DNA of 63,085 nucleotides, the filler included, from Sanchytrium tribonematis (Eukaryota), in the NCBI GenBank assembly GCA_018985235.1. It is 14 parts of 14 records of this genome, joined end to end, with 100 filler letters (N's around TTAATTAATTAA, not from the genome) between each part and the next. Parts side by side here need not be neighbours in the genome. Positions count along the whole stretch, not along the records: positions 3,241 to 6,365 come from JADGIG010000906.1; positions 6,466 to 9,582 come from JADGIG010000907.1; positions 9,683 to 31,259 come from JADGIG010000089.1; positions 31,360 to 34,471 come from JADGIG010000908.1; positions 34,572 to 37,675 come from JADGIG010000909.1; positions 37,776 to 40,873 come from JADGIG010000910.1; positions 40,974 to 44,067 come from JADGIG010000911.1; positions 44,168 to 47,259 come from JADGIG010000912.1; 6 more parts are not named here. One strand, given 5' to 3'. Under the pieces are notes generated by a model. The model ran no database searches. It was not told the DNA's origin and saw only the letters and a program-made list of their open reading frames with translations. Of this stretch, positions 3,241-62,533 are shown piece by piece. The position numbers were made by a program, and so were the translations under genes. Each line of letters opens with the position of its first letter. Position 1 is the first letter of the stretch.

Positions 3241-3949
3241 CCTAAATTTCCTGGATCGGTGAGGATGTTGTTCTTAAAGAAAATCAAGCACTCTTTCATG
3301 CACCCACAATTTCAAACGGACGTTGTAAAACCACTTAAAATTGACCACCTTCTAGACAATGAAGTTCAAACTTTATCTGGAGGAGAACTACAAAGAGTTG
3401 CCATTATTTTATGTCTGGGTCAAAGCGCTGATATCGTACTTTTGATTAATTTAGTATTTAATTGACGAACCTTCGGCTTACTTAGATTCCGAGCAACGTA
3501 TTATTGCTGCTAAAGTTATTAAGCGTTTTATCATTCATTCTAGAAAAACTGCCTTTATTGTTGAACATGATTTTATCATGGCAACGTATTTAGCTGATAG
3601 TGTTATTGTCTATGATGGTTCTCCAGGTATTGATGCACATGCTAATACACCACAACCACTTTTATCGGGAATGAACGCGTTTTTGAAGACATTGGACATC
3701 ACTTTTAGACGTGATCCCACAAATTTCAGACCTAGAATCAACAAATACGAATCTCAATTAGACAAGCAACAAAAATTAAGTGGTAATTACTTCTTCTTAG
3801 AGGATACGCCTGATAATGCTCTTCAAAAGACCGGAAAGGGAATAACAGAAGAAACTGAGAAAAGGAAGAAGAAGCAAAAACAAAAGATTCAATCTAATGA
3901 AGACAAGGAAGTCAGCGAAGAGGATGATTCTGAAAATTCATCCGAATAA
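3241..3949 (+). CDS. RLI1: ABCE1/Rli1 ribosome-recycling ABC ATPase, C-terminal part; exons 3241-3435 and 3455-3949
   Basis: [11 protein letters not shown]...ADI joined to [25 protein letters not shown]...[13 protein letters not shown]...[16 protein letters not shown] once a 19-nt intron is removed. Confidence 0.95.
3436..3454 (+). other. 19-nt spliceosomal intron (phase 0) in RLI1
   Basis: GTACTTTTGATTAATTTAG. Removal restores the conserved Walker B region ADI|YLIDEP. Confidence 0.93.
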
Positions 3950-3982
3950 ATATTTTTGCATTATAAAGCATAGGAGTCTCGA

Positions 3983-6365
3983 ATGAAATTCTGGCCAGAA
4001 GCGTTCGTCTTTATTTTCTTGATGGTGATGGCGTCTCTTTCACAGCAGAATTGGACCTTCATACTTTGCTATACCATTATTGTCCTTATGAAATTAGATG
4101 TTGTAAAATTTGATGAAAAAAGTGGCACAGAATTTCCAAGGATAATCAATTGCTTTTATTTGAGCAGCAAAATGAATGCTCAACCACCGCTTTATATGAT
4201 CCAAAATCAAAATATAACTTTGGAGTATGCAGAGTTTCCGCCTAGTAAGGTAGAAGTATCAGGTAAATTAACCGATAAGCCTAAATATTCTGACATGTTC
4301 GTCAATGCCAGAATTGCCGACCAGCCAAAAAACTGGTTGAATATAAGCAAACCAGAATCTGTATTAGAATCACTATACCGTCAATTTCAAAAATTTTATT
4401 GGAGCATGATTCTTTTTACATTGATTTTCAACATTGTATATGTTATTATAAAATCGTTACAGAATAACACAAGTATTATCGATAATATGTCAATTGCGGC
4501 TTGTTGCTTATTTTTATGTGTACCTTGGCACGTCTCACTAGTTCCTCTAATTAGCCATGGTGCAAGTACTTATCTCCACATAACCTGGCAAAAAGTTCAA
4601 TTGCTTCAAAAAAAGGAGCGAGAGTTTGACGAGGAATATCACAGGAAAATAACCTTGTCTTTGTGGAATGTTATCAAAAATTCATTTTCTAAACACCCTC
4701 GTCAACTAGTCGAAAGATTGGCAAACATTAGTATAATTGCAGCTTTAGATAAGACAGGAACCATTTCTCACAATCATCCTTCCATGTTTGAGTTGATATT
4801 ACCTCATGACCAAACTTTAGAAATTCAAACGTCTGAGTCAGGGGTTCGCTTCAGCAGTCCAGATTGGGAAAAATATACCAACAGTTTGCGCCCCATTGGA
4901 TTAATATTACTGATGAATACCAATTGTCATAAAACTTCGAATCTCCACTATAGGGAACTCAATTATAATGCTGCTAGTCATCAGGTTTCTTGTTATTGTA
5001 CTTTGGCTAAGGAAATAGGTTTTGATTCTAGCCATAATTTATCGGCGAGACAATACTTCGATCTTTTCATCACCCTTCAGGAAGACCACGCTCATTCGAG
5101 AGTTTATCAATACTCAAAAGGCAACGATCAAATAGTTATTGATGGCGATATCAATATAATTTTAAGCATGTGTTCCGATTACTGGGATGGGGAGGATATT
5201 TTCCCCATATCGGAAGCAATGAGAAAGAAATTTACAGATATTTATACAAACTGTAAAGCCAATGATATTGGTGCCATAGCATATGCCTATTCACCAGTAG
5301 ATCAAAATATATTAGATGCACTACAGCCACTTTTTGGCAAGAGCTACTTTTTATCCATGGAAACTGGTCTCTTTCCTCGAGAACAAGAGGCATTTGAAAA
5401 AATTATTCGCTCGAGACTTTTGTCTGGCTTAATTTTTCTAGGAATTTCTAAAATTTCACACAAACCAAAATCTCATGTGCGTGATTTAATTGAAGAGTTT
5501 AATCCATCCTCGATCCGATTTGTTTATTTTTCGCCAAAAGAAGAACGGCCTTCAAAAGCTTTTGCCGAGCGGCTGGGACTTGAAACCGATTGGAACTCAT
5601 ACTTATTACTTTCAAATCCCGAGGAGACAAATGTCGGATACCAAGAAGAACACGACATCAAAGCACAATTACCGCGCGGTATTGCAGCAATCAAAGAGCA
5701 TTTGCGAAACGTCGATGATATACCATTACATGTTTCTTTATTCGCAGAAGCCAGTCCAACATCTATAACAGAAATGCTTGGTATTTTTCAGTATTGGGGA
5801 GAAAGTGTTGCTGTGCTAGGGTCTTGTTTAAATTCACGTTTTTTGCCATGCTTCGCTGCCGCTGATATCTCAGTTGGACTTGTTCCAAGAAGCATCGATT
5901 TAAATTCGGAAGAAGGGAAATTGATTATGCACAGCAATCATTTTGTAGATTTGTTTCTGTCATATGATGCGAGTCTGTTTGCTCTTTATGACGTAATTAA
6001 AGATGCAAGAACTATTTCATCTAATTTACAAATGTTTGTAATTTATGGTTTTTTAATTCAATTAAATATGCTCTGTTCCGCACTCATCATACAGTGCTCA
6101 GACTATCAGTACCGCTTTACGCTGAATTCGTTGGTACCGATCAACATAATTATAATTCTGCAGTCTCTAGCATTTTTGTCTCTGGAAAATGAGAATTCTA
6201 TGAAATTGTATATGAGGAGAAATAAAAAGCAACGAAAAGAAGTTGCCAGCCTTCTACTAGCAGTTATACCTCGTAGTCTGGTTTTTTTAATATTCGATTT
6301 AATTAATTACATAATGTACTGGTCACTAATTTAGGTCCTTTCAGTATTTAAACAGTCACATTTTA
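3983..6365 (+). CDS. TMEM94: TMEM94-like P-type ATPase-related protein, 3' partial; exons 3983-6315 and 6335 to contig end
   Basis: LANISIIAALDKTGT, SLRPIGL, CSDYWDGEDIFPI, IRFVYFS, KAFAERLGLETDWN, KAQLPRGI..IKEHL.NVDDIPL.VSLF are TMEM94-family blocks. Confidence 0.85.
6316..6334 (+). other. 19-nt intron (phase 2) in the TMEM94-like gene
   Basis: GTACTGGTCACTAATTTAG matches the consensus. Removal eliminates the apparent TAG stop and leaves the frame open to the contig end. Confidence 0.75.
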
Positions 6366-7366: not shown

Positions 7367-7371
7367 ACCCA

Positions 7372-9382: not shown

Positions 9383-9429
9383 TAAATTAATTAAACTACA
9401 ATTTTATTATTTTATCAAGGAGAATCTCC

Positions 9430-9739: not shown

Positions 9740-12700
9740 TCAATTTTTATTCAACTGGGATAAAAGAAGATTTTGGAGCTCTTCAAGAATAGATGCTTCA
9801 ATTTTAGGGAATAGGTAATTTTTGTTTAGCAATGCATAGCGAGGATGTAAACCAAAGTAATAAGAATCTTGCTTAAATTCGTAAATATACCTAGAAGCCA
9901 TCGATATCGGAATTTTAATACCTTCAGCATAAAGACTCTCAAAAACACTGTCACAATTTGCCTGACTATATTCTTGATTTAAGGCAAGCACTTTGTGTAC
10001 CCATGTATCTCCATTGATTTGCCCTTCTAGCTGCTTTTCAAATGGGTCCTCAGTTTTAATATTATGTAGAAAAAAAGTTAATAATACGTAATATGTGGCA
10101 TAAGTTCCAAATGTGTTATTAATTAAGCTGTATTTTATGGAATCTTGCAAAGACGGAAATCCATTTTTTAATAAAATTTGTAGAGCTTTCAGTAAAGCTT
10201 CCAAATTTTCTGGGTAAATAGTTTCAAGAGAATGACATTTCCAACCAATCGATCTTAACAAGGTTAGTGTGAAAAGATTTAAGACGTCTACTTTTCGCTC
10301 AGTGTACTCAGTATTCACAAACTCCATTATCTCTGCGGGCTTTCTTTTTCTGATAAGTTCTGAGAAGCAGTTCATGTTGTGCTCCAAATCAGTACTTTCC
10401 AAACAGTTTTCTATTTGTATTCTAAATGGGTTGATATTTTGAAATTCTTTTAGTATTTTCTTGTCCAAAATTTGATCGTTCTGCAAATACAAACGACTCT
10501 TTAAGCTGAGATTATAAATTTCATCAAAATACGATTGCTTTTTATAGTTTTGATTAGGGATAATAATGCTATCATTTGATGAGTTTTTGGGAAATTTTTT
10601 GAGAATATAACTTGAATCCATTCCATGCAATTTGCATATGATGGGCACCAGCGATTGGTGCTCATTTAAAACTGAAATAGTTTTATCTTCATCATAGTTA
10701 AGCAGAACTAGAAGGTCTGAGAAAGAAATTTGAAGTTTTCTTGATTGACTGAGTACTTCTAGCAGGTCTAAAATCAATTCTTGGCCCGTACAATTCATTA
10801 ATTTTTCACTATATTAATGCAAACTACTATTTTGTCCAGACTAACTCTGGCATTTGAAATAAGCTATAAATGTTATTCAAAACAATTTGCTTAAGGGAAA
10901 CTAGTTCCGTGGCCTGCAAAAATTTAACCAAATATTGAGAATATTGCAAATGAAATTTGTTTCTACAAAATGGGACTAAACTCAGTTGTACAATTGATAT
11001 TTTAAAAAATTGCATACTATTAAGAAAAGATTGCTTTTGTGAATGTAAATTTTCAATTTTAGAGTACAGCTGAAGCAAAAAATTGTAGTCACTCTCTTGA
11101 AGGTCTTTGAGAAAATAGTTTTTAAGCTCTGGTAAAATGCGTTGGATCATTTTAAAAGGATCTTCGATTAATTTAGATTTTAAATGCACATGATGATGTA
11201 ACAACATCAAAATTTCTAGAAATTGATATTTTGGCTCACTTTTATAAATAGCGAATAATGGCTCCAAGTAAAAATTACTTAGCTGGTCAAGACTAAGTTC
11301 ACTGCAGCGCTTATAAATGTTTGGAGCTAAAATTTTCGGGTCAATCGTAGTTGCAATTCTTGCAAATATCTCGGGGCTAAAGGGTACACATTTAACGACT
11401 TGGATCACTTCTTCAGTATTTAATTCCTTCAAAATATCTTCAAATAGAGGTTCTTGGATTTTGACTATTCCAATTGCCAGAAGTTCAATGTCTGACATTT
11501 TCAACAAATCTCGAGAAGTCTCATTAACACTCAAGGCAAAGTCTAAAAAAATACCATTTTGAGTTTGATTCAAAACATGCTTGAGTTCAGTTGTTGGAAA
11601 TTTAGACGAAAAACAAGCTTCAGCGCACTTTACTTCTTGAGATATTGGCAACAAGTTTCTAGTATCTTCGGAGCTAAAACTTAACTTGAAAATATCCACC
11701 GCGAAATTATATGCAGATACTTGCTGGGTTAAAGAGAAATAGGTCATCAACTCCTCGATTGAATATGAGCGAAATACACTGAAATATAGCGAAAAGTCAC
11801 TTGAATCATTTAAAAATTCAAGTGGGTCATAAATATGATTCAAAGGAATTTTTGGAATGTTCGTCTTTAAAAATTTTAGCCTTTTTTGAGAGTCTAATAA
11901 TATGGATTCAAACTTATCAACATAAATTTCATTCGTATTCAAAAGCTCTAGACCATATTTAATAAGTAATAAACATGATTCTAATGAATTTGGGACTCTC
12001 TGAATGGAAGACTGCAGTCTATATTCAATATCATCAATATTTGACAATAGTTGCGTGATACTTAATTCTGTGACGGCTGTTTGTTGCCATTGGACTTTCA
12101 ACACCTCACTTTGACTGATTCCCAATTGCTCTGCCATTTTTAAAGCCTCTCCATAATTTTTCGAAGATAATAATGACTCGTATATTTTATATGGGGTAGT
12201 CATCCCAACATCATAGATCTCATTTTCGTGTGTATAAATGTCATCGCGACTATTATCATCAAATTGCCATAGTAAAATAGAAATGATATATTCAAAAATG
12301 TAAAATATTAAATTATACAGCGTGGTTTCTTCTTCCACAGACTTTAAAATAGAATGGGAATTCCAAAAATATAAGTTTTTTCCAGATAAGAATTTTTCAC
12401 CATTGAGCTCGATATTGCTAATAAAATCTATCTCTTCAAAATTTTCATCAAGCATTACCAATGGGCTAGAATCGTTATAGTTTAAAAATTTTGAATCAAT
12501 GGGAAATAGTTGAGAATACTTTAATTTTAATTTTTGTTCGCCTTTAGACACAAATTCATTAACACAAAAATATCCATCACCTATAGACGAACTCATAGAA
12601 TTTGTTGGAATGCTCAATATATTTAATGGATCCAAGTGATATGGATACTCTAATATCAAATTGTGCATATTTTTGATATCTAATTGCAAAATTTCACTGT

Positions 12701-19833: not shown

Positions 19834-21100
19834 TTATGCTGTAATAATATCTCCAAAATTATCTTCTTGATGAAGATCAAAATTTGAGCTAAGCAAATTC
19901 ACAAAGGCACTGGCTGCCTGAAAGCGAGAAAAGTTCTTTGTTCTTTCAAAAAAGGAATCACCTTTACACCAATTTAAATTTTCTTTTGTCAAAGGAACAG
20001 TCATCAAAGGGTTATCTAGAGCAGTCTTATTTTCCAAATTAGCCGTACCTATTTCAAAAGCATCTATTACAGAGCTTGAAATTGGCTCTGCAAAGTCGAA
20101 TTGCTCTTCAAATGCAGGCAATTCAATTGAATTTTCTGATTTTTGGTGTGCATCTGTCAAAAATTCCTCAATCTGGCGATACGGTCGATGGGTCATATTT
20201 TGACCAAATTTTTTCAAATTTAACAATTCCATACTTTGATCGATGTTAAGTGGATCAAAAAGTGAGACTTCTGCACCTAGATCTATAGTGACAATTTTTT
20301 CAATGATTTTATCAAAATATTTCCTGCCTACCGATCCGCTTTGCTTCGAAATGGTTCTTTTTCTTTTCTTGTATTTTTTAGAGTTGCTAAATTAGAAAGA
20401 AAAACCTATCAATATTTTTTAAAAAATTGTTCGACTTGAGGTCGTCTGGAATCCCAGATATTTTGGAGATCTCAAGTTGCAAATCTGGCAATGATTCTTG
20501 AGTAGATTTTAGCTCGGAGTGAGCCCTTTCTTCAGAGAGAAGTTGTTGCTCCAGGTCCAAAGGAATGGGTAATATACTGTTGTCCGGCAAATCGAAGACT
20601 GGTAACGCTTCTCCCACTGAACCTCGTCTTCCAACTTCGATCGAGTCGTCGTTTTTGGTATTTCCTAGACTCAAATCAAAATTTAACTGCTCGTCATTCA
20701 AGTCAATACCTCGATTAATTTCAATACTGGGTAAGGATTTTGCAGACAAGCTAATAGATTCTAGCAGCTGGTCGTCATCTATTTGGAGTTGACCCTCGCT
20801 TAAATCAAAATCAAGTTGAGGCATATGTTTTTCCTTTTTTCTTTTACCAAACATACTACGATCGGTAGCTACTGTACAATCATTCAGCAAAAATGCAGCT
20901 TGTTTTTCGTATAATTTATGTAAGCCCAAAAGTAAATATGCGCTAAGTCTTAGCGCAAATGATCCCGAAATAATATCTTTACATGCGGTATCAATATCGC
21001 AATGTACCGCTTCTTTCTTTTTGATCGATTTTGTGTTGTGAGCGGCTAACCAAATTAGCGAAAGCGAGCCATCGCCAATTAGATGGCTGGTATAAAACAT
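19834..21100 (-). CDS. RAD21: Alpha-kleisin cohesin subunit (Rad21/Mcd1/Rec8 family), 415 aa; exons 21100-20406 and 20386-19834
   Basis: N-terminal MFY...LSLIWLAAH...ALRLSAYLLLGL and C-terminal SRFQAASAFVNLL...HQEDNFGDII, joined in frame by a 19-nt intron. Rad21 versus Rec8 is not resolved. Confidence 0.85.
20387..20405 (-). other. 19-nt intron (phase 2) in the kleisin gene
   Basis: GTTTTTCTTTCTAATTTAG. Removal opens 51 further codons that run in frame into the C-terminal ORF. Confidence 0.88.
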
Positions 21101-28928: not shown

Positions 28929-30279
28929 TTATTTATCTTCATCTGTTTTCAGTTGAACCTGAATACCAGCCTTGTTCAACCTCTCAAATAAGACAAAAAG
29001 TTTTTCAGCTTCGATTTCCTTTTCCTCGTCAGTCATTTCACTTATAAAAGAATCTCGCTCTTTCTGTCCAGTTACAAAGTTCCATTCTCCATGCGTTTCT
29101 TTACTATATTTCTCTTGAAGTTGTGAAGATAAGAGCCCATGGTTAACTAAATACCCCATTACTATACCCAAACCGGTATAATTAACCATTTCCTCAACTT
29201 TATAAAAAACAATTACCTTGCTGATCGAATAAAGAAAAAACTAGTTCTTGAATTCGTTCACTTGTGAATGCAGTCATCGGAGGTGGCCTTACCTGTCCCT
29301 CGCTGATAAGCCCTACTTCTTCTTTCGTAATTCCTAGACCTGCAGTTGCAGAGAATGCACTTATAAGCCTGTGAGGCAAAGATATGCCAGCTCCCAAAAC
29401 TTCTGCTCGATCAACGTCATCTGGCAAAAGCTTTTCCTTTAAATATATTCTCCATGGCTTTTGTTTTCCCAATGAGCTTATTTTGAATTCTAAAGTACAC
29501 ATCCAAGTGAACAGATAAGCAATAATTCCAAAAACAGTGCCAGTCACTTCATTGTCATGAGTAAATTTGGTGTCCAAATAATTAATTAGGAAGTCGATTA
29601 ATATTTTGTCCTTCTTTTCAACATAAACATTCTCATATAATGCAACTCCATTTTCAATCGACATAACACTTTCAAGCTCACTCGCCAAAAAATCTTTAAA
29701 ATGAAGTAACGCATTTAAAGCGTGACTAGTGTGGGTTTCATTCAAAACTAAGCGCCTTAACTTTTCATATAACTTGGGTATAGATATGTTTTTAGATTCA
29801 AAGAGTTTGCCCCGTTCTTTATCATTAGTTTGTACAAGATCGTAAAAATTAAGAAGATTATAGAGACACTTTAAGCATTCGTCAAGAACGTCATCCTTAT
29901 CACAATCAAGTGATTCATAGATTTTCTCAACCAAAGCAACTCCGTATAACCGAATTCTTTCATGGTATTCTGTAGTAGCCAAAAAGAAAATTCTAAATAT
30001 CACAAACAAATGATCTGAATGAAGCTGATCTACGACTTTGAGATCAATTTTTTCCGCATAGTATGTATGAGATCCATATAATTTGAGGGTATTAGCAACA
30101 CATTTCAACTCATCTAATTTGCTGAGATCTAGTTGTGACAAGTAAGGACTCATATCAAATATTCGGGATATTGCGAGTAATTGATCAGATCTCTTTTCTT
30201 TAAAAAACAAGGTGACATACTTTTCAACTTCCGAAGATTCAAGAGAATTAATGTCTATGTTAATATCTAAATTTGACAT
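28929..30279 (-). CDS. RIC8: Ric8/synembryn G-alpha GEF and chaperone, 443 aa; exons 30279-29217 and 29197-28929
   Basis: ECLKCLYNL, LKEKLLP..VDR..VLG, ELVFSLFDQQ|VEEMVNYTGLG..MGYL, NFVTGQ, EMTDEEKEIEAEKLFVLFERL. Confidence 0.92.
29198..29216 (-). other. 19-nt intron (phase 1) in RIC8
   Basis: GTAATTGTTTTTTATAAAG. Removal joins the two Ric8 halves in frame. Confidence 0.88.
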
Positions 30280-34300: not shown

Positions 34301-34471
34301 GTAAATGTAGAGAGAAGTGAATTAGAACAAAGTAGAGCTGAATTGACAAAACAACAAAATGAATTTAGGATCAAATTATTGGAGTTAGAAAATAATCTAT
34401 TAAATAAATTAAGCAGTGCCCAAGGCAACTTTTTAGGTGATACGACATTGGTAGAGAATCTAGAGATCACT
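31361..34471 (+). CDS. Axonemal dynein heavy chain, internal fragment (outer-arm beta, DNAH9/11/17-like)
   Basis: AMNPTSGNFTI, FLPTAVKFHYIFNMRELSNVFQG, AAA4 P-loop LVGVGGSGKQSLSRLA, stalk with DRSWKASK, FIDPQLQ, HYTPEIQAQT. Confidence 0.95.
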
Positions 34472-38398: not shown

Positions 38399-38836
38399 TT
38401 ATTCTTGACATTCATCTGCATAGTGTCCATCTTGGTTACATCGATAACAAACAATAATTCTTTTACCGTTTGCATACGTTTTGGCTATACAGCTTCCAAT
38501 AAAATGACCAATTCTAAAACATCTCAAACAAGCATCTTGGGATGCTGCAATTTCTCTAAAGATTGCTAATTCGCTTGAAACGGGTAGTTCTATTTGAACA
38601 TAAGCACCTCCTCTGACATTTTCAATACCAAAGTCTCTCATGTACTTTTTAACCATGAAATCCTCATACAATTCATCTACGTTTTCAACTGTTTCTATTG
38701 TTTCTAATGGCTTGTATAACATTGTCCACTCGCATCCTTGGGTATTAAAATGTTGTTCAATTCGTTTTTCTAAATTCTTTGTCTTGCCAACGTAGTATTT
38801 ATCTTGATCAAGTTTCAATACGTATACGCTGGTCAT
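38399..38836 (-). CDS. GIY-YIG nuclease-domain protein with CCHC zinc knuckles
   Basis: VYVLKL..DKYYVGKT.NLEKRIEQH, KKYM..FGIENVRGG.Y, then CLRCFRIGHFIGSC and CYRCNQDGHYADEC. Confidence 0.88.
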   Translation of the reverse strand: MTSVYVLKLDQDKYYVGKTKNLEKRIEQHFNTQGCEWTMLYKPLETIETVENVDELYEDFMVKKYMRDFGIENVRGGAYVQIELPVSSELAIFREIAASQDACLRCFRIGHFIGSCIAKTYANGKRIIVCYRCNQDGHYADECQE

Positions 38837-38954
38837 TGGAATCTTCCCGTGTTTTGAAATGCTTAACTTCTTTTAAGCCCTATCCAGTGGCTTAACGTTG
38901 GAAGAAGAATACAAAGAATGAATCCAAGGAGGATATATTGAGACTGATAAAAAG

Positions 38955-39182
38955 ATGGATGAATTGAATGATTTAATAATCAAGAAACCTTTTCCATATT
39001 TCGAGACCGCATCGTTGCCATTACTAACAGTATTCCTGCAAGTAACAAGAGATAAACGAGAATTGATAAGAAAATATTATTTATTGGATAGCAATGTAGT
39101 TAGACCAAAAGAACGATTTGCATTTTACAAAGCTGCAGGTACACTGGTCGAGGAATGCCGGGTCAATTTTCAAATCTTTTAA
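38955..39182 (+). CDS. Small orphan ORF
   Basis: 75 aa with the stop in TAATAAA. Confidence 0.4.
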   Translation: MDELNDLIIKKPFPYFETASLPLLTVFLQVTRDKRELIRKYYLLDSNVVRPKERFAFYKAAGTLVEECRVNFQIF

Positions 39183-45599: not shown

Positions 45600-45746
45600 T
45601 TTCTGGAACAAAGGAGCACACCTGTTCTAAATTTAATGTTATACATCAATAACCGCCAAATTAGAATAAAATGAAACTATAAGAACATGAACAAAGTTTA
45701 TTTGAAAGTCTAAATGAATCTGAAACAACTATATTAAAGCCATTTG

Positions 45747-46461
45747 ATGAAAATTAAAAATTTCTTATTTGGTTTGATAACAGCTGCCATACTGTTCATA
45801 ATTATCTTCGCTACTCACAAAGATGATGTTATACGAATTTTGACAGATTTTAAATTATGGTTACGCGAACATCCTGCTGGTCCAATATTGGTGTTTTTCT
45901 TAATAAGTCTAACAGCATGTCCTCCCACTCCTGGATATTCTACTCTAGTAATATTTACAGGGTTTGTTTATGGCATGAATGGCTGGTTCATTGCTTCTAG
46001 CGCTGCTGTTTTTGGAGCTAGTTGTGTATTTATAATTACGAGAAAATTTAAGATAGGTTTTACAATGGATAGAAATTGGTTAACAATCTCTAAGGTTGTA
46101 GAAAAAAAAGGACTTTGGTTTGTGCTGCTTTTAAGGCTTGCACCAAGTCCATTTAATTTGTCTAATGTTATCTTTGCAATTACTAAAGTGAAATATACCA
46201 CGTTTGCTCTTGCCACGGCCATATCTACGCTCAAGTTGCTTATGCATGTATATCTAGGTAAAACCATCTAACTAAGGCGCGTGTATGGGAGCTCATTTTG
46301 AAATCAAATCCGAGGGATCATTATTATTTGTAAGCATAGCATTTTTTATTGTGGCAAGCGCAGTCTGCTACAAAACTGTTCAGAATGAACTCATCAAAGA
46401 AAACGCATTAGGAGAAGAGGAGCTGTTAAGTGTACCAGCAAAAGGGGTCGATATTGCCTGA
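45747..46461 (+). CDS. TVP38: Tvp38/TMEM64 (DedA/VTT family) membrane protein, 231 aa; exons 45747-46257 and 46277-46461
   Basis: PP.PGYS, GFVYG..GW, LLRLAPSPFNLSN, KLLMHVYLG. The spliced exon adds a final TM helix and ends in TGA followed by AATAAA. Confidence 0.85.
46258..46276 (+). other. 19-nt intron (phase 1) in TVP38
   Basis: GTAAAACCATCTAACTAAG, with a canonical CTAAC branch motif at positions 11-15. Confidence 0.88.
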
Positions 46462-50443: not shown

Positions 50444-50699
50444 NNNNNNNNNNNNNNNNNNNNNNNNNNNNNNNNNNNNNNNNNNNNTTAATTAATTAAN
50501 NNNNNNNNNNNNNNNNNNNNNNNNNNNNNNNNNNNNNNNNNNNCCTGAAGAGTTACGAGATTGACGCTTTAACCAATGATTTATTGAGTTACTGGGCTGT
50601 CATTCTACCCAATTAGAATTACCTCAAGTCATCTGGTACATTTCGTCTCTCAAAGGGGGATCAGGAGTTCTCCTTGGGGTAAATCTATTTTAGAAATGG

Positions 50700-52181
50700 C
50701 ATTTAATAGACACATACCTTTGCTTTTGTTGTGTCAATGGAATTATCCCGATCGAATGGACAGATTCCTCAATTATCGAAATCTTCAAAAATAAGGGGAG
50801 CATTGAAAATCCCATGTTCTACAGGCCAATAAGTCTAAATTGTGTTCTCAGAAAACTTTATGAGAAGCTACTTTATTATTAACTTCTAAAAAATGAGTTG
50901 ATACCATCATACAGGCAACATGGCTTTGCTTTTAGTCGCGGAACTCTTACACAATTGCATTTAGCTTTAAATTTAATGGGTGGTAAAAATGGCAATTTTT
51001 ATATGGGATCTGTAGATTTGAGCAGTGCATTTGACACTGTGAACTGGAATGACATTGAAAAATCTACCCAAAATAATTTAAAACCATGGGATTTAAATGC
51101 ATTAAGATCACTGATTGTGAATCAATCACTACATTTAAAACGTGATTCAAATAAAACGCAAGTAAAATTAAAACAAGGTGTACCTCAAGGAGGGACCTTA
51201 TCGCCTTTATTTTTTTCTTTTATCGTTGACAAAATCATTTCCGAGCTGGAATTTGATGAAAATTGACTCAATTTTTGCTTATATGCTGATGATATTTTTG
51301 TAATTTCAAACTATAAAGAGTATTTACAGGAAATACTTGTCAAATTGACAGATTTATTAATGCGGCATTCATTTAAAGCCAATCCACAAAAGTACCAAGT
51401 TGTGGCATCTGAAAAGGTAGAAATTGTAATACAAAATCAAACCCTTCAACAATGTAACTTTATGCGATATCTTGGCGTTCATATTAACAAAGATGGCATT
51501 GATTATGAGCAAGAAATCAAACACAAACAAAACAAAATTAAAATGGTTCAAGCCAAATTGAATAACGGATGTGCCAAAAAGCTCTTTCAAGGAAAATCAC
51601 TATTTGTAAAAGACATAATTGATACCATTTTATCGTATGGATTGTCTCTATGGACTCCAAAAGAATTAGACAAACTGGAGAAATTAAGAAAATACACCAT
51701 TAATAAATTATTTGGAAATACTAGACTAATACATAAATACCTCTGTGGTTTTTTAAATGCTATCGAATTATATCAACGAGCAAGAATTAGTCATGAAAAT
51801 CAAATAAAAAACATCATTTTTACTTTGGAACAGCAAGATACGCCCCAAAATTACTTAGAATTGCTTAAACGTGATACATCAATGGCCTGCAATATTAATG
51901 ACTATATCCCTCTTGATACAGGGACTTCAAATGAGCTGATGGAGAGAAATGAAGAGAGATTGAAGGAGATGTGGAACACAAATCCGGCGGAAAGAGGGAG
52001 TAGATTGGATACTGAGAGCAATCTAATGAAACTACTGAAGAGCAACAAGTATACCAGAGTGTATACTCATCATGTTTTAAGACTGGGACTGCTTTTTATG
52101 GGAATTATCCCATATAAAACATACAAAACGCGATCCCTCCGATTTGCTATTTCAAAAAGAAACACGCGAAAGCATCAATAA
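50700..52181 (+). mobile_element. Decayed non-LTR (LINE) retrotransposon reverse transcriptase
   Basis: One frame carries P.EW..S.I..IFK.KG...YRPISL, QHGF, DLSSAFD, GVPQGGTLSPLFF, YADD and RYLG. In-frame stops are TAA 50880-50882 and TGA 51264-51266. Confidence 0.9.
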
Positions 52182-54405: not shown

Positions 54406-56338
54406 ATGTCAACAGATCACACCAAATTCATTTTAATCACAGGTGGCGTATTAAGTGGCATTGGTAAAGGTGTCATTGCTTCATCTACTGGATTCTTATT
54501 GAAAACATACGGATTGCGAGTCACAGCCATTAAAATTGACCCATATTTAAATATCGATGCTGGCACATTATCTCCATTAGATCACGGTGAAGTATTCGTA
54601 TTGGATGATGGTGGAGAAGTCGATTTAGATTTAGGGAATTATGAGAGATTTCTAGATGTGACATTAACAAGAGATAATAATATCACAACTGGTAAAGTAT
54701 ACAGAAAAGTGATTGAAAAAGAACGTAAAGGGGATTATTTGGGCAAGACTGTGCAGATTATCCCACATGTCACAGATGAAATACAAAATTGGATTTTAAA
54801 TATTGCCAGTAAATTGGTATCTGATCATATTCCAGATATTTGTATGATTGAATTGGGTGGGACTGTAGGTGACATTGAATCTGCACCTTTTATTGAAGCC
54901 ATGCGTCAATTTCAATTCAAAGTAGGTCCTACTCGATTTTGTTGCATTCACGTGTCTTTAATTCCTGTTGTAGGTGCTGTTGGGGAACAAAAGAGTAAGC
55001 CGACTCAAGCTAGTGTCAAATCATTGCGTGGATTGGGTTTATCTCCTGATATTTTAGCATGTCGATCTGCCAATCCATTAGATGAGACTGTGAAACAGAA
55101 ATTGGCGATGTTTTGCCATACGCCAGTAGAGAATGTTATTGGCGTACATGACTGTGCGAGTGTCTATCATGTGCCTATTTTATTAAAGAATCAAGGATTG
55201 TTGACTATTTTAGAGCGTAAATTGAATTTATTGCCATTGGTGGAACATCGTAGAAGTATTGAAGGGACTCAATTTGTAGACCATGAGAGTAGTTCATTAT
55301 GGATCAGATGGCATAAAATGGCCATGAGACAATCTCATTTACAGAATAGTGTTGAAATTGCATTGGTTGGCAAATATACGACTTTGCATGATTCATATGC
55401 AAGTGTGTTGAAATCATTGCAACATGCTGCATTGAGTTGCAATTTAAAGTGTAGTGTGAAGTGGATTGAATCAGATGATTTAGAATTACAAACAAAGATA
55501 GATTCTCCTAAAAAGTATCACGCTGCATGGCAATCCCTAGTAGATGCAAATGGAGTCTTAATCCCTGGTGGATTTGGTGTGCGTGGTACGGAAGGGATGG
55601 TAGAAGCAGCTAAATGGGCAAGAATCAATAAGAAACCATTTCTTGGGATTTGTTTGGGATTACAAATTGCAACAATCGAATATTCCAGAAATGTTTTAAA
55701 ATTAGAAAATGCAAATAGTGAAGAATTGAATGAGAATGCGCCTCATAAAGTAGTCGTATTCATGCCAGAAACATCAAAAACACAATTAGGTGGTACCATG
55801 AGATTGGGAAATCGTAAAACATTATTTCAAAATGCAAATTGGTCCATTATTCGTATTTCCAACTCATTTAGATGCATTATATGACCATAAACCAGAGATA
55901 TTTGAAAGGCATCGACATCGGTATGAAGTCAATCCTGAAATTGTAAATGATTTAGAAGCAAATGGCATGATTTTTGTAGGAAGAGACGAAACAGGCAAAA
56001 GAATGGAAATTATGGAATTAAAACATGATCCAGTAGATCAATGGGAAATGATAGACGGTAAAATGCAACCAAAAGAGGGTCACCCATATTATGTCGGATG
56101 TCAATTTCATCCAGAATATTTGACGCGTCCCCTTGTCCCATCTCCTCCATTTTTGGGATTGATTTTAGCGAGTGCTGGATTAACCCATCAATGGTTTGAA
56201 GCTAAAAAGAATCATATTGGTGAATATGGATCAGATTCTACTTCTGATTTAGAAGAATCTCCAATCATGTTAAACAAAGACCCCTATACGATTCATCCGA
56301 TTAGAGGCACCCAAATGGAAGTGAAGAAGGATTATTAA
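54406..56338 (+). CDS. URA7: CTP synthase, 637 aa; exons 54406-55852 and 55872-56338
   Basis: [56 protein letters not shown]...[16 protein letters not shown]. Confidence 0.97.
55853..55871 (+). other. 19-nt intron (phase 1) in CTP synthase
   Basis: GTATTTCCAACTCATTTAG. Removal restores the conserved WS..x.LY...ERHRHRYE spacing. Confidence 0.93.
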
Positions 56339-56894: not shown

Positions 56895-59655
56895 TTATTG
56901 ATTTATAATTTCTAGCAGCAGACTGGAAATATTGGCAGTAAGGTCGCCATGAGTACATTTGACTGCAATTTTAAGTGACTAAATAAGTTAAAATTACTTT
57001 TTGATTCAAAATAAGTTTTAAAAGAATACCAATTCTTAAGTTGGCACAATTAACGATGGAAGCGCCTGTAAACACGTTTTGATTCAAGAGATCTGAATTG
57101 ATAGTTGAAAATTTGAGTGCTGTAACTTTTTGGATAAGTGATTTAATATCTCCAAAATAGTTGGTGTCCATGATGAAACTTTGGTTTGGCGCAACTAATT
57201 TTAGTGCTCTCTGGTTGTAGTCAACATCTGATAATTGTAGAGCAGTTTGAAATCTAAATAAATGAACTGGGAGTTTTGTTGAGATTTCCACCTCACCAAT
57301 GTTGTTTCGATATGAGATTGTCATTTGTGGAATTGCGTAAAAGACATTCAAGGCCTGAAAATCTAGAACATGTCGCATTTGGGATCCAGCAGGTAATAAA
57401 TTTGGAAATTGTTCTTTAACTTTAATTGTCAACCCTTCCACATTTGTAATGTCGATTACAAAGTTATTGTAATTTGAACTTGATTTGTTACCGATATATA
57501 AGGAAAGACCACCAAATGCATTCTCATATTGAGATTTAATTCCGAGCTGAAGTTCTTGATCTTCATATAACAATCCTTCTCCATTTACAAGCAAATTGGT
57601 GAGCAACTTATTGTCAACTACCTTGTTGACTTTTTGAGGGACAGATTTTGTTATTGAGCCATTTGAAAATCCAAAAAGATCATCGAGATTGCTTGAAGGC
57701 CTTTGTGTTCCAACAGAATTTGGCGCAGGTGTAGGTTCACCAAACAAATCCAGCAAATCATTTTTTGGCTCGGGTTTTTTGGCTTGAGGTAAGTCTCTAT
57801 TAATTGTTTGAACTGTAATTTCTGCAGGAGTTGACTTTGTTAAACTTCTGGCAAGATTGTCGGTAGTCAGATTAAACTCTGGCATTTCATCGCACACTAC
57901 TTGGAGCATATCCCTATTTTCTGGCTGAAGTAATTCATAGTATTCGCACGATCTTTGTTGAATTTCAACATCCAAATCCTGCATGTGATTTTTAAAAATA
58001 TTTTGAATGACTGAGGTAGTTTGAGGAAACAAATTAGCTACTTTCAAATAAGCAGTGAACATAATAACTTTAGTGGAGTTTGGAGATATCTCAAAATTTT
58101 TATGGATTAAATTCAATTGCTCGTTTGGAAAATAGCCAGGTTTGTCTGCCAACAAATGACCATATTCACCAATGATATAAGCACAAACTTTTAAGAGACT
58201 ATCAGAAACCTCGTCTCTTTGTAGACAATCGATGCAGTGTCTCACTGCAAATTCCTGTATATCAAGATTATTGACTGCAATATGGATAGCTTTAAACCAA
58301 ACATCATTGGCCACATCATCTCCTCCAATGTCTATTAAACTGAAAACAGTTGTAAAATACCAACTGATATCTTTAGCAAAATTTTCAGCCAAGATGGCTA
58401 TTTTTAGAATGAGTTCGCCTTTAAATTCTTCTTCTGTCACATTTAAATGATTTAGTAGCTCCAACACGATAACATCATAGTTTCCGCTATCACATATAGC
58501 AAATAATAAATCGACTGCTTCTTTCTTAACGGATGTATCTGTGTCTCTTAACAATTCAATTATAAGTTCCTTGTGCTTTTTTATTCGGTTCAAGCAGTGC
58601 TCAATCTTAGTTAATTTGGTTAAATTTTCAAGTGCTAAATATCTTGAATTAGTTTCATTAGATACTAAAAATCCATGAAGGACGTCAATTGCGCTGTCAA
58701 GCATTTCAGAATCTGGCATGATATCTGAAATCAAAGAAATTGCAGTTAGAAATATCGCGTTGGAGGTATTGTTTGATTGTTGGTTTTTCTGAATTACTTT
58801 ATGGCTTCTAATAATCTCGGTTAAGATTGATTGTAATTTTGACAAATTGAAATTTCGATTGCTTGGACATAGTTTTCGTAAAAGATCTAATAATTTAATT
58901 TGTAACCAAGGTGCAGGAATTTTGTAATATAAATAGTCAGCAGGACAGATTTTTTCGAGTACAATATCGGCTAACCGATCAATAAAGACATTTGCACTTT
59001 GTAAAAATTCATGTCGGAATTCGTTGCAAAGTTCGTCCACAAAACTGCTGATTGCCATCAATATTCCTATGTCAGAAACACGCAATAGTTCCTTAATCTG
59101 AGGAATCCATTCTCGAATAGGCACGCAGCTCGGATATTGCCTGTAGAGGCTCAATGCAGTCAGGGCAGCCTTTTTCTTTACAAAATCACTAGATCCTTTG
59201 TTATAAATCACCTTCCACACATCAACAATTGCTGCCTCTGTAAGCTCTAATCCACCGATATTTGCAATGCATTGTAAAGCCAAACTAGTGAAATGCATAT
59301 TTGAATCGTTCAGATCTTTTTTGAGCTGATTAATAATTAAACGAACTAATTCTGGAGAGTTTTGTAATAATAATGATGCTGCTAAATATCCCAATTGCTT
59401 TTCCGAAAACTTAGTGCTCCCACAAAGCCCAACAGCTTCTGCATGACCAAAATCGATGTCATATCCTAGTAGATATATAAATAAGATTTTAGATACATAT
59501 TTCTTTTTCTGATAAGAGTTCAAAGATCCACCTTTGAATTTCTGACGAATATTGGTCAGTTCCTTATTAACGCGCTTCTCCTCTTCGTCATGAGAATGGC
59601 AAGCTCTAATATCACCAATAAATTGTTGAAGTCCTCTCATTTCATTCGAAATCAT
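56895..59655 (-). CDS. AP2A: AP-2 adaptor alpha subunit, 913 aa; exons 59655-56998 and 56978-56895
   Basis: MRGLQQFIGDIR, EEEKRVNKEL.NIR.KF, FSEKQLGY, PAPWLQIKLL, DVEIQQRSCEY. The last exon completes the appendage domain (SLKIAVKCTHGDLTANISSLLLEII). Confidence 0.96.
56979..56997 (-). other. 19-nt intron (phase 0) in AP-2 alpha
   Basis: GTAATTTTAACTTATTTAG. The 27-aa terminal exon ends in CAA TAA ATAA, with AATAAA over the stop. Confidence 0.88.
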
Positions 59656-59694
59656 GTTTTATTTTTAAGCCACGACTGGTTCAAACAAAATTTA

Positions 59695-59930: not shown

Positions 59931-60030
59931 NNNNNNNNNNNNNNNNNNNNNNNNNNNNNNNNNNNNNNNNNNNNTTAATTAATTAANNNNNNNNNNNNNN
60001 NNNNNNNNNNNNNNNNNNNNNNNNNNNNNN

Positions 60031-60519
60031 TATTGTGACCTGACTGTGAATCCTGAAAGCAAATCCGAACATATTTGTCACAAGGGCTACCTAACAATTT
60101 ACCCACTTATGTTGGGACTTATTCCCAAAAAATCCGATCATCTAAAACCTGTGTTAGAATTTATTAAAAGTGAACAAGTTTGGACCAAATATGGTATACG
60201 ATCTTTAGCGCTAACTGATGAGTTTAGTCATCAAGGCGAAAATTATTGGAGAGGTCCTATTTGGATTCAAATGAATTATCTGATTGCAGGAAGCTTGTTC
60301 AAGAATTACATAGACTCAAATGAAAAAGATTTAGCATTATCAATTTATAATGACCTTCGTTTGAATGTTGTCAATAATGTTTTTAAAGAATTTAAACGAA
60401 CAGGATTTTTTTGGGAGCAATATAATGATGATAATGGACAAGGGCAAAGAGCAAAACCTTTCACAGGATGGTCTGCTTTGGTCTCCTTGATGTTAATGGA
60501 GGTGTATGATGGTTTGTAA
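60031..60519 (+). CDS. CWH41: Mannosyl-oligosaccharide glucosidase I (GH63), C-terminal part
   Basis: CHKGYLTIYP, WTKYGIRSL, ENYWRGPIWIQMNYL, TGFFWEQY..G.GQR..PFTGW. Confidence 0.95.
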   Translation, partial: YCDLTVNPESKSEHICHKGYLTIYPLMLGLIPKKSDHLKPVLEFIKSEQVWTKYGIRSLALTDEFSHQGENYWRGPIWIQMNYLIAGSLFKNYIDSNEKDLALSIYNDLRLNVVNNVFKEFKRTGFFWEQYNDDNGQGQRAKPFTGWSALVSLMLMEVYDGL

Positions 60520-60558
60520 TAAACGAATTTGGTTTTTATCTTCTCTTATATTTGAAAC

Positions 60559-62533
60559 ATGGATCTCATATTGAAATTAAAAAAGGACTTCGATGAGAAC
60601 ATATCAATTTTTGAATTATATGGAGAATATAAAGGCCCTGATTTTCTTAAATTGTTTAACAGAATACTGAAGAAGTTGGTGCTAAAGGCCAAGGATATGA
60701 CCTCTAATGGCCTTTATGTAGAAACGCATTACGATTATTTAAAAGATGAATCAGACATAAATTCAAATTCCGCGCATATAGTGGATGTCTTGGGTGGTGT
60801 ACTGCAGATGCCAATTTCCCATGAGGAGGCAACTGAATTGCAGACTAATTTACTCATAACATCCGATAAAGAGAAGCTTAATGAAGCATTGAGATTTCTA
60901 TTATCAGACCCAGCCGAACATTCGAAAAAACTATATTTGGGAGCCTATTTAGTCCCTGTCGATGTACCACCAGAATTTAAGTCTTTGGGAGTGATTCAAC
61001 AATTGCAAACTCAACTAAATCAATTAACAGAAGATTTTGTCACTATTCACAGAGAATACTCGCAGAAACACAATGATTTAGAAGTTTTAAAGCAATTGGA
61101 AATCTTGACCACGCAAAAAGAAGATGATAAAAGGGTTTTACAACAGCAAATTAAGGTTTTAGAGACTAAGTATGATAAATCTTCAGAGTCAGATTCTTGG
61201 CTAGAACTTTGCAAAGCCTACCATCGAGAAAATCAATTATTTATAGAGGCAAAAGCGAAAATTCAGGAACTTCAAAATATTCAAATCCGGGAGTGCGATT
61301 TTAATAAAGAAAAAAAGGACTCTGAAAAATTTAATGCAGAGAAGCGATTAGCTTCTCCAATATCAGAAATTTTAAATGAAATGGAGAACGAATTGCACAA
61401 AGCCGAATATTTTTTACAATCTTCTCAAAAAGATTATGAATTTCAATCGAAAGTTCTTAGCACATTGCAGCAATCACTAGGTAAAAACATCACTAGATCA
61501 GATGTTATAGGCGTCGAAGATTCTATTTCAAGACTTAACGGTGATTTGAATGAGGCTACGCAGACGCTGTTATCGAATGGGTATATTTTGCTTACTTAGG
61601 TTTACTGATAAGAAAATTTCCGAGCAGCAGTATATTGGCCTTAGCAACAAAAAGCAGCAGCTTATCGAATTAATCAAGTCTGTAGAAAAAGATGAAATTG
61701 AGATTCAAGAGTCACTTGACCATTTCAAAGAATTAAGAACTCAATACAAATCTAGAAAACAAGAAATCAATAGTTTGGAAGCGGAAAAGGCTATGCTGTT
61801 AGAAAATATGTCCAAGTTGAAATTAAATTTTGGTGAGAAGCTGAGTGCTGTTACTCAAAAGGAACAAAAGGCAGGGATAGTCGGCTTTTCCAGGATGAAG
61901 GATGAGCTTATGAAGCTTTCCAATACAAAATCGAATTTAGACAGTGTTAAGATGAACACACTAGAAGAAGTATCAGTCTTAGTTAAAGAGATTAACACCA
62001 AAATTAATGAAAAAAAATCTATAATTGGCCCAAAGTCCAGCCAACTCAAAAAATTAAGAAACAAAATTGCAAAACAAGAAGAAATTATAAATGAAAAACA
62101 ATTTGCTTATGATGCAAAAATACTTAATATAAAAAAGGAAGTTGAAGAATTATCTAAGTCCAACACTCTTCTTCAAGAGAACATTATTCAAAAAGAAGAT
62201 CGGCGTGAAGAACTTGAGGATCTAGTTGAAGTTGCTAAGGAACATCTAAATTTGCTTCAAGAAGAGAAAAAAAAGTATTCCAGCAAAAGTGAAGAATCAC
62301 TTGGAACTATTAAAGAGAAATTAAAAAGAAAATTGTATGAGCTGGAGACAAAATATGGTGATCTTTCTGAGGAGGAAACTAATTTGAGAAGTGCAATTGA
62401 ACCCAACAAAAAAATGATTGCCTCTTTCGAGATTATAAACAAAATATTAGAACAGAAAAAGATGGACAATGATGATTCTTTGAATGCTTCATTAGAAGAC
62501 GCCAAGAATTTGGAAAATAGAATGATATTATGA
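60559..62533 (+). CDS. IFT81: Intraflagellar transport protein IFT81, 651 aa; exons 60559-61580 and 61600-62533
   Basis: KKLYLGAYLVPVDVPPEF, EQKAGIVGF...LSNTKSNLD..KMNTLEEVS.LV.EI..KINEKKS, C-terminal ENRMIL. Confidence 0.88.
61581..61599 (+). other. 19-nt intron (phase 2) in IFT81
   Basis: GTATATTTTGCTTACTTAG. Removal fuses the two IFT81 halves in frame (SN-G-FTDKK). Confidence 0.9.

Follow-up and report, generated by a model that had tools for sequence, protein, structure and literature searches.

Candidate 19-nucleotide spliceosomal introns in genes of the sanchytrid fungus Sanchytrium tribonematis

Nine inserts of exactly 19 nt interrupt genes in the 63,085-nt stretch of Sanchytrium tribonematis DNA analysed here (14 contigs separated by Ns; hereafter, the window). 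Judging from sequence, they are most probably conventional spliceosomal introns of the major (U2) class, reduced almost to the predicted minimum spliceable length (probability about 0.85); few known fungal introns would be as short. An earlier note on this DNA had described nine GT-AG segments of 19 nt on six contigs, and its coordinates, strands, lengths and ends proved right in all nine cases. Its reading of the segments as spliceosomal introns is likewise favored by the GT..AG ends, the sense orientation, the branch-like block and the restored frames.

Nine interrupted genes

The inserts, which lie on contigs 2, 4, 9, 12, 13 and 14, are as follows.

3436..3454 (+): RLI1/ABCE1 candidate intron, 19 nt, phase 0, in the second ATPase domain (Walker B region)
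6316..6334 (+): TMEM94-like gene candidate intron, 19 nt, phase 2; motif and frame rescue only
10809..10827 (-): NBAS/KNTC1-like gene candidate intron, 19 nt, phase 2; frame rescue and motif
20387..20405 (-): Rad21/Rec8 kleisin gene candidate intron, 19 nt, phase 2, GTT donor; frame rescue and motif
29198..29216 (-): RIC8 candidate intron, 19 nt, phase 1; homolog spacing
46258..46276 (+): TVP38/VTT-domain gene candidate intron, 19 nt, phase 1; frame rescue and motif
55853..55871 (+): URA7 (CTP synthase) candidate intron, 19 nt, phase 1; best-scoring length
56979..56997 (-): AP-2 alpha (AP2A) candidate intron, close to the gene 3' end, 19 nt, phase 0; homolog register
61581..61599 (+): IFT81 candidate intron, 19 nt, phase 2; exact homolog junction

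All nine are sense-oriented within protein-coding genes (five on the plus strand and four on the minus strand), affect 9 of the 45 genes in the window, and always lie past the midpoint of the coding sequence, on its 3' side. As the earlier note had claimed, excision opens a single continuous frame across each of them. Because 19 is 3n+1, retention leads to a stop within 0–10 codons in every case, so that decay of unspliced RNA is possible. The standard code (table 1) yields long ORFs throughout the window, and an alternative genetic code is unnecessary.

Excision restores the homologous protein exactly in four of the nine genes (RLI1, IFT81, AP2A and RIC8), and 19 nt is the best length in URA7; the evidence at the TMEM94-like, NBAS-like, kleisin and TVP38 sites consists of frame rescue and the motif. 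In RLI1, the upstream piece corresponds to residues 424–488 of yeast Rli1 and the downstream piece to residues 489–606, with zero residues lost or gained. The spliced IFT81 product (651 aa; the name is supported) aligns along its length with the 654-aa IFT81 of Amoeboradix gromovi (43% identity) and is gapless at the junction, and the last exon of AP2A is in register with fungal C-termini. The Ric8 Pfam model matches at positions 40–316 upstream of the RIC8 intron and at 343–432 downstream. In the spliced product, 16 residues separate the E-x-x-F-x-L stretch from the Y of YTG, the same as from E429 to Y445 of Ric-8B; this spacing was taken from a PDB search with the downstream part, and a PDB search with the 100 residues upstream of the intron gave no match. 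For URA7, an HMM of 116 homologs ranked 19 nt above all other 3n+1 excisions (145.1 bits, compared with 138.4 for 1 nt). The GT..AG 19-mer itself scored 143.5 bits, 1.6 bits below a 19-nt excision shifted by 1–3 bases, and the next GT..AG candidate scored 122.4. The motif spacing that the earlier note had reported as restored in RLI1, RIC8, AP2A and URA7 stands as an exact junction in the first three and as the best-scoring length in URA7.

At the remaining sites, excision links 843 and 356 codons in the NBAS/KNTC1-like gene, where retention leads to an immediate TAG, and 231 and 184 codons in the kleisin gene, with Rad21_Rec8_N upstream of the intron. In the TVP38 gene, the VTT domain stops at the break, and excision extends the frame by 61 codons that include a hydrophobic helix. 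The TMEM94-like intron lies 31 nt from the contig end. The name TMEM94 is supported (atlas 0.94), whereas the gene previously called NBAS may be either NBAS- or KNTC1-like.

Splice-like signals and a single length in the window

The inserts share G1 and T2 (9/9), A3 (8/9), T5 and T6 (7/9 each), and none has G at +5. Toward the 3' end, Y11, T12, A14, Y15, W16, W17 and the terminal AG are each invariant. Positions 11–15 form a branch-like YTHAY block with A14 at -6 in all nine, and the first AG thereafter is at positions 18–19. U12-type (minor-class) introns have a long conserved donor and branch consensus. The nine inserts, with variable, T-rich donor positions 4–8 and no extended consensus, were not assigned to this class.

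A generic motif (GTA plus YTNAY-NN-AG, both strands) gave 10 matches at 19 nt, compared with a mean of 1.37 (sd 1.35, maximum 6) at lengths of 22–80 nt. Fifteen motif/spacing combinations were tried, one of which gave a small bump at 18 nt with spacing 5 (5 matches against a maximum of 3). On the sense strand of the 45 gene regions (53,743 nt), the length scan with GT[AT]..YTHAYWWAG peaked at 19 nt only, with nine matches, none at 17, 18, 20, 21 or 22 nt, and at most three at each other length between 12 and 60 nt; the antisense control gave one match at 19 nt. GT[AT] occurs exactly 19 nt back from 9 of 24 sense 3' motifs, where 0.54 are expected (P ~1e-9, a value that is partly circular because the 3' motif was derived from these nine inserts). 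With a leave-one-out matrix, each insert scored above all 164 other sense GT-N15-AG 19-mers. Run with a flat length prior, a codon-model gene finder located seven of the nine break regions but chose the exact 19 nt at only two, so the coding signal alone does not set the length. With a lax penalty it predicted 18 introns, two of them exact and five at known breaks with other boundaries; the other 11 joined neighboring genes or involved antisense frames, a retroelement or MLH1.

The earlier statement that no convincing intron of another length is present held in the recognised genes of the window, where no further motif-bearing, frame-rescuing candidate was found; from 9/9, the 95% lower bound on the 19-nt share is ~72% of frame-visible introns. 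One 37-nt candidate (39096, +) lies between weak ORFs, the upstream of which has no Pfam match. Among conserved genes, the frame is otherwise broken only in MLH1 near 45460 (-), by a deletion rather than an insert, and excision of a 31-nt candidate intron there would remove even more conserved sequence. A 21-nt in-frame candidate in a P450 gene (23993, -) and a 19-nt candidate at a GIY-YIG start (38821, -) were read as coding, and a 19-nt candidate at 62649 (-) does not rescue the frame. Decayed retroelements are also present in the window.

Homologous breaks in relatives and the lineage's spliceosome

The suggested placement of the host among the fungi was borne out, as an early-diverging member, and narrowed to the sanchytrids, which parasitise algae. 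In the URA7 tree, it groups with A. gromovi and one ENA protein (100/100), and this sanchytrid group adjoins Blastocladiomycota (81/72). The RLI1 piece is identical over 65/65 residues to the protein that EukProt labels S. tribonematis, and the GC content of the window is 33%. The description of the organism as flagellated needs qualification: a flagellum exists, but in sanchytrids it is reduced and non-motile (PMC8371127).

Truncated proteins of relatives end at the same sites. The RLI1 break is common to four sanchytrid-like relatives, the URA7 break to A. gromovi and two ENA proteins, and the AP2A break to all three ENA relatives; the A. gromovi IFT81 gene is uninterrupted. Decoding the protein tails, from which both the relatives' intron lengths and the reading of Val as GTN were inferred, gave 19 nt for five (including A. 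gromovi and S. tribonematis) and most simply 20–21 nt, or longer, for three others; the A. gromovi URA7 tail was assigned no length. In all five 19-nt tails, nt 13–15 encode N, H or Y, so that position 14 must be A, a constraint obtained without reference to the window. Among the RLI1 tails, the residues read through differ but the shifted frame is always Y-L-I. The tails of other lengths end in a stop that is most simply the acceptor TAG, and their branch positions are still at -8/-6. Hence, 19 nt is a mode and not a clade-wide constant, and the proposed single-length class stands for the window (9/9) but, on the simplest decoding, not for all relatives.

Beyond the sanchytrids, 0 of 117 other listed RLI1 homologs break at the intron column; most are annotated products, so this count is uninformative. 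At the AP2A column, 62 homologs were examined by protein read-through, of which 24 lack the anchor motif. Among the 38 scorable ones, 22 leave the alignment with Val, including Paraphysoderma, and 16 continue. The AP2A position thus appears to be common to other fungi, and at least this intron likely descends from an old fungal one, whereas the IFT81 intron is, by these comparisons, a lineage-specific gain or loss. Of 80 metagenome loci retrieved with the ENA URA7 relative as query, none was sanchytrid-like, and the best full-length matches were at 57–61%; two partial matches of higher identity (L039 and L072) have 43–45% GC and stop before the intron site.

The A. gromovi eggNOG table lists Prp8, Brr2, Snu114, SF3B1, U2AF1, U2AF2, SF1/BBP and U1-70K, with no U1-C among the entries listed (PMC8371127 supplement). 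SF1/BBP is represented by two adjacent ORFs in A. gromovi. No snRNA genes were found in the window (Rfam, 0 matches).

A probable length floor and its significance

We propose that the weak GUA donor, which has no +5 G, would be docked by U1, and that the block at positions 11–15 would be read by SF1/U2AF and then U2. Attack of A14 on G1 would leave a lariat with a 14-nt loop and a 5-nt tail. The AG would be chosen at a set distance from the branch point, making total length the sum of the smallest workable loop and a constant tail. In this compact parasite genome, deletion bias may press introns onto this floor; relatives would tolerate one or two more bases on the 5' side of the branch point. 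The fixed spacing and minimal loop would account for the length, and the special ruler implied by the earlier term 'ruler-like' is not needed. A new spliceosomal ruler that measures 19 nt from the donor, blind to all else, is improbable in our view: it fits the one length in 9/9, and the weak donor would require spacing to carry information, but a strong branch block occupies a fixed place in all nine inserts, and 15 of the 24 sense 3' motifs lack a donor 19 nt upstream and presumably go unspliced. In relatives, the branch position stays at -6 as total length varies, which points to a branch-anchored 3' end and a minimal loop, comparable to Stentor introns of 15 versus 16 nt.

A more serious alternative, which we nevertheless consider unlikely, is that the introns are real and 19 nt is simply the commonest length in a broader distribution whose longer, in-frame (18/21-nt) and UTR members are under-sampled in 63 kb. 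The lengths decoded for three homologous introns of relatives agree with it, in-frame introns without a stop cause no frame break, and only nine introns were seen; against it, neighboring lengths yielded no sense motif matches, an intron of 20 nt would show up just as readily as one of 19 nt, and AP2A and URA7 of the window carry no 6–7 residue insertion relative to close relatives. There is very little to recommend a ribosomal frameshift or hop over the insert in unspliced RNA. A 19-nt insert does correspond to a +1 shift, but such a shift would put six extra residues into Walker B of RLI1, a region in which the yeast protein is gapless at 488–489; in URA7, the 1-nt excision scores 5–7 bits below the 19-nt ones, the NBAS-like insert opens with an in-frame stop, and the conserved letters are splice signals. 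We give just as little credence to assembly or amplification errors, pseudogene insertions or elements excised at the DNA level. The MLH1 deletion and the decayed retroelements indicate that damage or artefacts occur here, yet contigs of run X1, which may be the assembly source and hence not independent, are free of indels at the NBAS-like, kleisin and RIC8 sites (depth ~74–84). Moreover, the uniformly sense-oriented inserts have no target-site duplication in their flanks, RLI1 and URA7 are core genes, and identical breaks recur in separately assembled relatives, a cross-species conservation that largely refutes this alternative.

The closest parallels to the candidate U2 introns come from other lineages. 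The earlier suggestion of an independent origin looks correct. Stentor coeruleus introns (15–16 nt), in an unrelated lineage, are similar in their GU..AG ends, GUA donor, branch A with a 5-nt tail, AU content (75.6%; 75% here), proportion of genes affected (18%; 9/45 here) and extra base 5' of the branch point, but have a 10–11-nt lariat loop (14 nt predicted here), a weak branch block rather than a clear YTHAY, and a 5' bias (PMC9505925). Chlorarachniophyte nucleomorph introns (18–21 nt, median 19, mean 19.1) share the modal length and the 19–21-nt range decoded across relatives, but are described as dense (>800 in ~300 genes) and without a branch signature (PMC2483917; PMC10245619), whereas the inserts here occur at 0.17/kb with a strong branch block in the main nucleus of a fungus. 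The 16–17-nt introns of Mikrocytos/Paramikrocytos also combine a parasite genome, near-single length and conserved sequence, and are explained by a floor and deletion bias; these organisms are rhizarians with shorter introns, a strongly reduced spliceosome (A. gromovi keeps U1-70K, U2AF1/2 and SF1) and, as described, no introns in metabolic enzymes, while CTP synthase has one here (PMC10245619). Among opisthokonts, the holomycotan parasite Encephalitozoon cuniculi has a TAAYTT branch hexamer that matches the 3' block, but very few, 5'-biased and longer introns (median 32 in one table; miniature class ~1/3 of 76 nt) with strong GTAAGT-type donors (PMC2483917; PMC6349667). Since sanchytrids are sister to Blastocladiomycota, their shortening would be independent of the microsporidian one. 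Yarrowia shares the 2-nt spacing between branch point and AG (PMC2483917). Parasitic myxobolids and dicyemids have introns <30 nt at conserved positions, but with shortest medians of 22 bp, reduced splice motifs and no single length (PMC13644364). A near-fixed length below 22 nt characterizes the inserts of the window (9/9 at 19), and the lengths decoded from relatives' protein tails (19–21) are compatible with it.

No description of sanchytrid introns was found in the literature searched, which mostly excludes subscription papers and genome-portal statistics. Phrases on 19-nt introns were nucleomorph-related only, and 'intron' occurs in PMC8371127 and PMC10459994 only in the reference lists. 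The two published sanchytrid proteomes were produced with TransDecoder on genomic contigs (PMC8371127). As the earlier note had anticipated for standard gene finders, EukProt entries marked 'type:complete' (A. gromovi URA7 and RLI1, S. tribonematis RLI1) are cut short by intron read-through. With core genes apparently truncated or split in these proteomes, presence/absence and reductive-evolution inferences drawn from them need re-checking. Extrapolating the density in the window to a 10.5–11.2 Mb genome would give ~1,500 introns (~700–3,100, the Poisson range on nine).

We lean slightly toward a reading, taken as a whole, in which splicing of 19(-21)-nt introns extends to all Sanchytriomycota, whose modal length would be the lowest in fungi and probably in opisthokonts; with near-complete U1/U2AF/SF1, they would have arrived independently at the spliceosome size floor, with loss of the +5 G and an unusual 3'-half bias, and ~1,500 introns per genome would be unannotated and about one-fifth of genes split in public proteomes. 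The inserts would add to the heterotrich, mikrocytid and nucleomorph cases a separate origin of introns below 20 nt, the first found among fungi proper. The spliceosome's minimal substrate would become testable by comparison with Blastocladiomycota, which are close and normal relatives, and, given the CUAAY-like branch block, with minigenes in yeast or S. pombe. If the reading for the whole phylum is true, loss of the +5 G predicts changed U1/U6 pairing in sanchytrids, and some gene losses published for the phylum would be artefacts.

Nine 19-nt segments and their shared motif

The window comprises 14 contigs of about 3 kb each, except one of 21.6 kb, separated by N spacers, with a GC content of 33%. 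Its genes can be read with the standard code and are densely packed, with 45 gene regions occupying 87% of the contig bases. Nine GT..AG segments of exactly 19 nt had been proposed in an earlier note, and all nine are present as written, on the gene sense strand:

3436-3454 (+), in RLI1
6316-6334 (+), in TMEM94
10809-10827 (-), in an NBAS/KNTC1-like gene
20387-20405 (-), in a kleisin gene
29198-29216 (-), in RIC8
46258-46276 (+), in TVP38
55853-55871 (+), in URA7
56979-56997 (-), in AP2A
61581-61599 (+), in IFT81

Excision reopens the frame in nine of nine cases, as the note had claimed. When all GT/GC..AG joins of 12–60 nt that rescue a frame were enumerated, seven of the sites were recovered; those in TMEM94 and AP2A were missed because the last piece is too short. 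The assertion that no convincing intron of another length occurs also held, the lone full-score candidate of another length within 12–60 nt in the window being one of 37 nt at 39096, flanked by weak ORFs. A codon-model gene finder without a length prior found seven break regions and the exact 19 nt at just two, so the length must be fixed by homology.

Alignment of the nine segments reveals a YTHAY block at positions 11–15, with invariant T12 and A14, followed by WWAG. The donor is GTA in 8/9; T occupies +5 and +6 in 7/9, and G is never found at +5. Motif tests are partly circular because the motif was derived from the same segments. The generic motif gave 10 matches at 19 nt, compared with 1.37 on average and at most 6 across 22–80 nt. 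On sense strands, the specific motif gave 9 matches at 19 nt and none at 17, 18, 20, 21 or 22 nt; the antisense control gave one at 19 nt. With a leave-one-out matrix, each intron scored above all 164 other sense GT-N15-AG 19-mers. A 17- or 20-nt GT..AG stretch carrying the 3' motif lies upstream of the MLH1 start (45710-45729, -); it may represent an intron in the 5' UTR or a chance match.

All nine introns lie in the 3' half of the coding sequence (0.52–0.97; RLI1 at 0.75, TMEM94 after codon 777), which has a probability of about 0.002 under a uniform model and runs counter to the 5' bias that introns of Stentor and yeast are reported to show. Whole-window motif scans yielded no candidate near a gene start, where short first exons could escape notice. 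Intron density is 0.17 per kb in the window, compared with 1.30 in Allomyces and 3.93 in chytrids (PMC8476143).

Junctions compared with homologs and relatives

The claim that excision restores homolog spacing was borne out. In RLI1, one piece matches yeast Rli1 residues 424–488 and the other 489–606; in RIC8, the conserved Glu and the Tyr of YTG are separated by 16 residues, matching Ric-8B 429–445; and the 27-codon last exon of AP2A is in register with the C-termini of fungal homologs. For URA7, 2,182 frame-restoring removals of 1–79 nt were scored with an HMM of 116 homologs. The best, in a region of variable length, was 19 nt (145.1 bits); GT..AG boundaries scored 143.5 bits, a 1-nt removal 138.4 and the next GT..AG candidate 122.4. 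The Amoeboradix gromovi ortholog of IFT81, 654 residues long and uninterrupted, lacks the intron; the spliced product from the window (651 residues) is 43% identical to it, and their alignment has no gap at the junction. The TMEM94, NBAS/KNTC1-like, kleisin and TVP38 sites are based on motif and frame rescue.

The sole other break in a conserved gene, in MLH1 at ~45460 (-), was rejected as an intron and is a deletion. About 15 ATPase-domain codons (MutL residues 50–64) are gone, with a frameshift, and the two pieces overlap by ~8 nt; this is either an artefact or a damaged mismatch-repair gene.

Relatives' proteins (EukProt or ENA metagenome, P numbers) end in intron read-through, which can be decoded because they were predicted without introns. 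RLI1 of S. tribonematis (P0236), A. gromovi (P0356) and ENA P0238 fits 19 nt, with Y-L-I in the shifted frame; for ENA P0237, 19 nt is impossible and 21 nt with a terminal TAG fits. AP2A of ENA P0123 and P0125 fits 19 nt, their read-on of 11 and 6 residues agreeing with the last exon in the window, and that of P0124 fits 21 nt. For URA7 of ENA P0002 and of P0121, its cluster mate, the fit is 20 nt. A. gromovi URA7 (P0003) has its stop at nt 12–14, the place that a CTAA branch block would occupy in a 19-mer. Among the nine tails (eight distinct cases), five give 19 nt, three give 20–21 nt as the simplest fit, longer introns being possible, and P0003 does not single out a length. The codon at nt 13–15 is N, H or Y in 5/5 relatives decoding to 19 nt, and A14 is therefore forced in them.

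Of 62 AP2A homologs examined from beyond the sanchytrids, 38 could be scored. Among these, 22, including Paraphysoderma, exit the alignment with Val at the intron column and 16 continue, so this position is likely that of an old fungal intron.

Proposed branch-anchored splicing and its alternatives

We hypothesize that the nine segments are spliceosomal introns with a branch-anchored 3' end and a minimal loop (probability about 0.85). U2-type splicing would use A14 as the branch point, producing a lariat whose loop spans 14 nt and whose tail spans 5 nt; function would set the floor on length and deletion bias would erode introns from above. This reading is preferred over a new ruler because of parallels elsewhere and the annotated spliceosome of A. 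gromovi, with Prp8, Brr2, Snu114, SF3B1, U2AF1, U2AF2, SF1/BBP and U1-70K (PMC8371127, supplement file 4). In Stentor the tail is likewise 5 nt, whereas the loop is 10–11 nt, and the extra nucleotide of the longer intron class sits on the 5' side of the branch point (PMC9505925). Yarrowia is known to have a branch point-AG spacing of 2 nt, and TAAYTT occurs in the introns of E. cuniculi (PMC2483917). A functional floor with deletion bias, proposed for mikrocytids (PMC10245619), would suit the 19-nt introns as well.

The earlier note favored an independent origin of a ruler-like class. Its independence stands, as a separate member of the tiny-intron kind, but a ruler counting 19 nt ranks below the branch-anchored floor and appears improbable. 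Less improbable, though still unlikely, is that 19 nt is one mode of a wider genome-wide spread: the single length holds for nine of nine introns in the window but not for the three relatives' introns that decode most simply to 20–21 nt. Retention of a segment leads to a stop after 0–10 codons at all nine sites. Recoding instead of splicing is scarcely credible. An artefact is just as hard to credit. The indel errors suggested as a check are absent from contigs of X1, a DNA sequencing run that may be the window's source, over the NBAS-like, kleisin and RIC8 sites (depth ~74–84). Elsewhere, X1 contains two variants at 12132-12246, with four differences and depths of 59 and 35, as well as another four differences at 11046-11094, reflecting heterozygosity, mixed strains or a repeat.

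The host and annotation of its genes

The closest URA7 proteins are one from ENA (79%) and that of A. gromovi (78%), followed by blastocladiomycetes and chytrids (64–68%). In a tree of 30 proteins, picked from ~120 so as to span phyla, the window, ENA and A. gromovi sequences group at 100/100, and Blastocladiomycota adjoin at 81/72. The RLI1 piece is identical at 65/65 residues to a protein labelled Sanchytrium tribonematis. These results place the host among the sanchytrids, as S. tribonematis or a species close to it. Between window 3241-3465 and P0236, the exon protein is identical, but two residues of the read-through differ, neither of them affecting the spliced product; the source is a second copy, an allele or a close relative. 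ENA metagenome assemblies contain at least three sanchytrid-like organisms (P0002, P0123-P0125, P0237, P0238), and the phylum is therefore sampled beyond its two described genomes; their AP2A proteins are 68–76% identical among themselves and to the window.

Two further features were recognized:

50544-52181 (+), remnant of a decayed non-LTR reverse transcriptase, interrupted by an in-frame TGA (51264) and by more breaks upstream
38399-38872 (-), small GIY-YIG and zinc-knuckle protein on contig 7, adjoining ORFs without a Pfam match

The latter kind is frequent in large DNA viruses and mobile elements. A low-coding stretch of contig 7 (39860-40873) may be similar to the non-LTR remnant.

Sanchytrids are parasites of algae with genomes of 10.5–11.2 Mb and ~35% GC; the note's term 'flagellated' applies to them with a reservation, as their flagellum is reduced and non-motile (PMC8371127). 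The text of that paper says that they lack axonemal dyneins, although its eggNOG table has at least three K10408 rows. Contig 5 in its entirety (31361-34471, +) encodes part of an axonemal dynein heavy chain of the outer arm; its 1037 codons are intact and free of introns, with host-like GC. The chain is of the DNAH9/17 type, scoring 1152 and 1141 bits, versus 834 for the Chlamydomonas beta chain.

Tiny, near-fixed introns are already known from heterotrichs (15–16 nt), mikrocytids (16–17 nt) and nucleomorphs (18–21 nt) (PMC10245619). Introns have a median of 22 nt in myxobolids (PMC13644364) and measure ~25–32 nt in microsporidia and ~30 nt in Rozella (PMC6349667, PMC2483917). Our literature searches, subscription papers and genome-portal statistics aside, found sanchytrid introns nowhere described, in accord with the note's impression; in the accessible text of PMC8371127 and PMC10459994, 'intron' is confined to reference lists. 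The observation is real. As judged from sequence, the 19-nt introns are a new, independent case of a known kind and apparently the shortest in fungi.

The sanchytrid genome paper ran TransDecoder on genomic contigs (PMC8371127), and the predicted mis-annotation is evident in the RLI1, AP2A and URA7 proteins of relatives, which run on into introns. In its supplement file 4, A. gromovi SF1/BBP is listed as two adjacent ORFs (NODE_116 p11 and p12) and Snu114 occupies at least four rows; both are likely genes split by tiny introns. The 19-nt introns thus have direct consequences for the annotation of sanchytrid genes.
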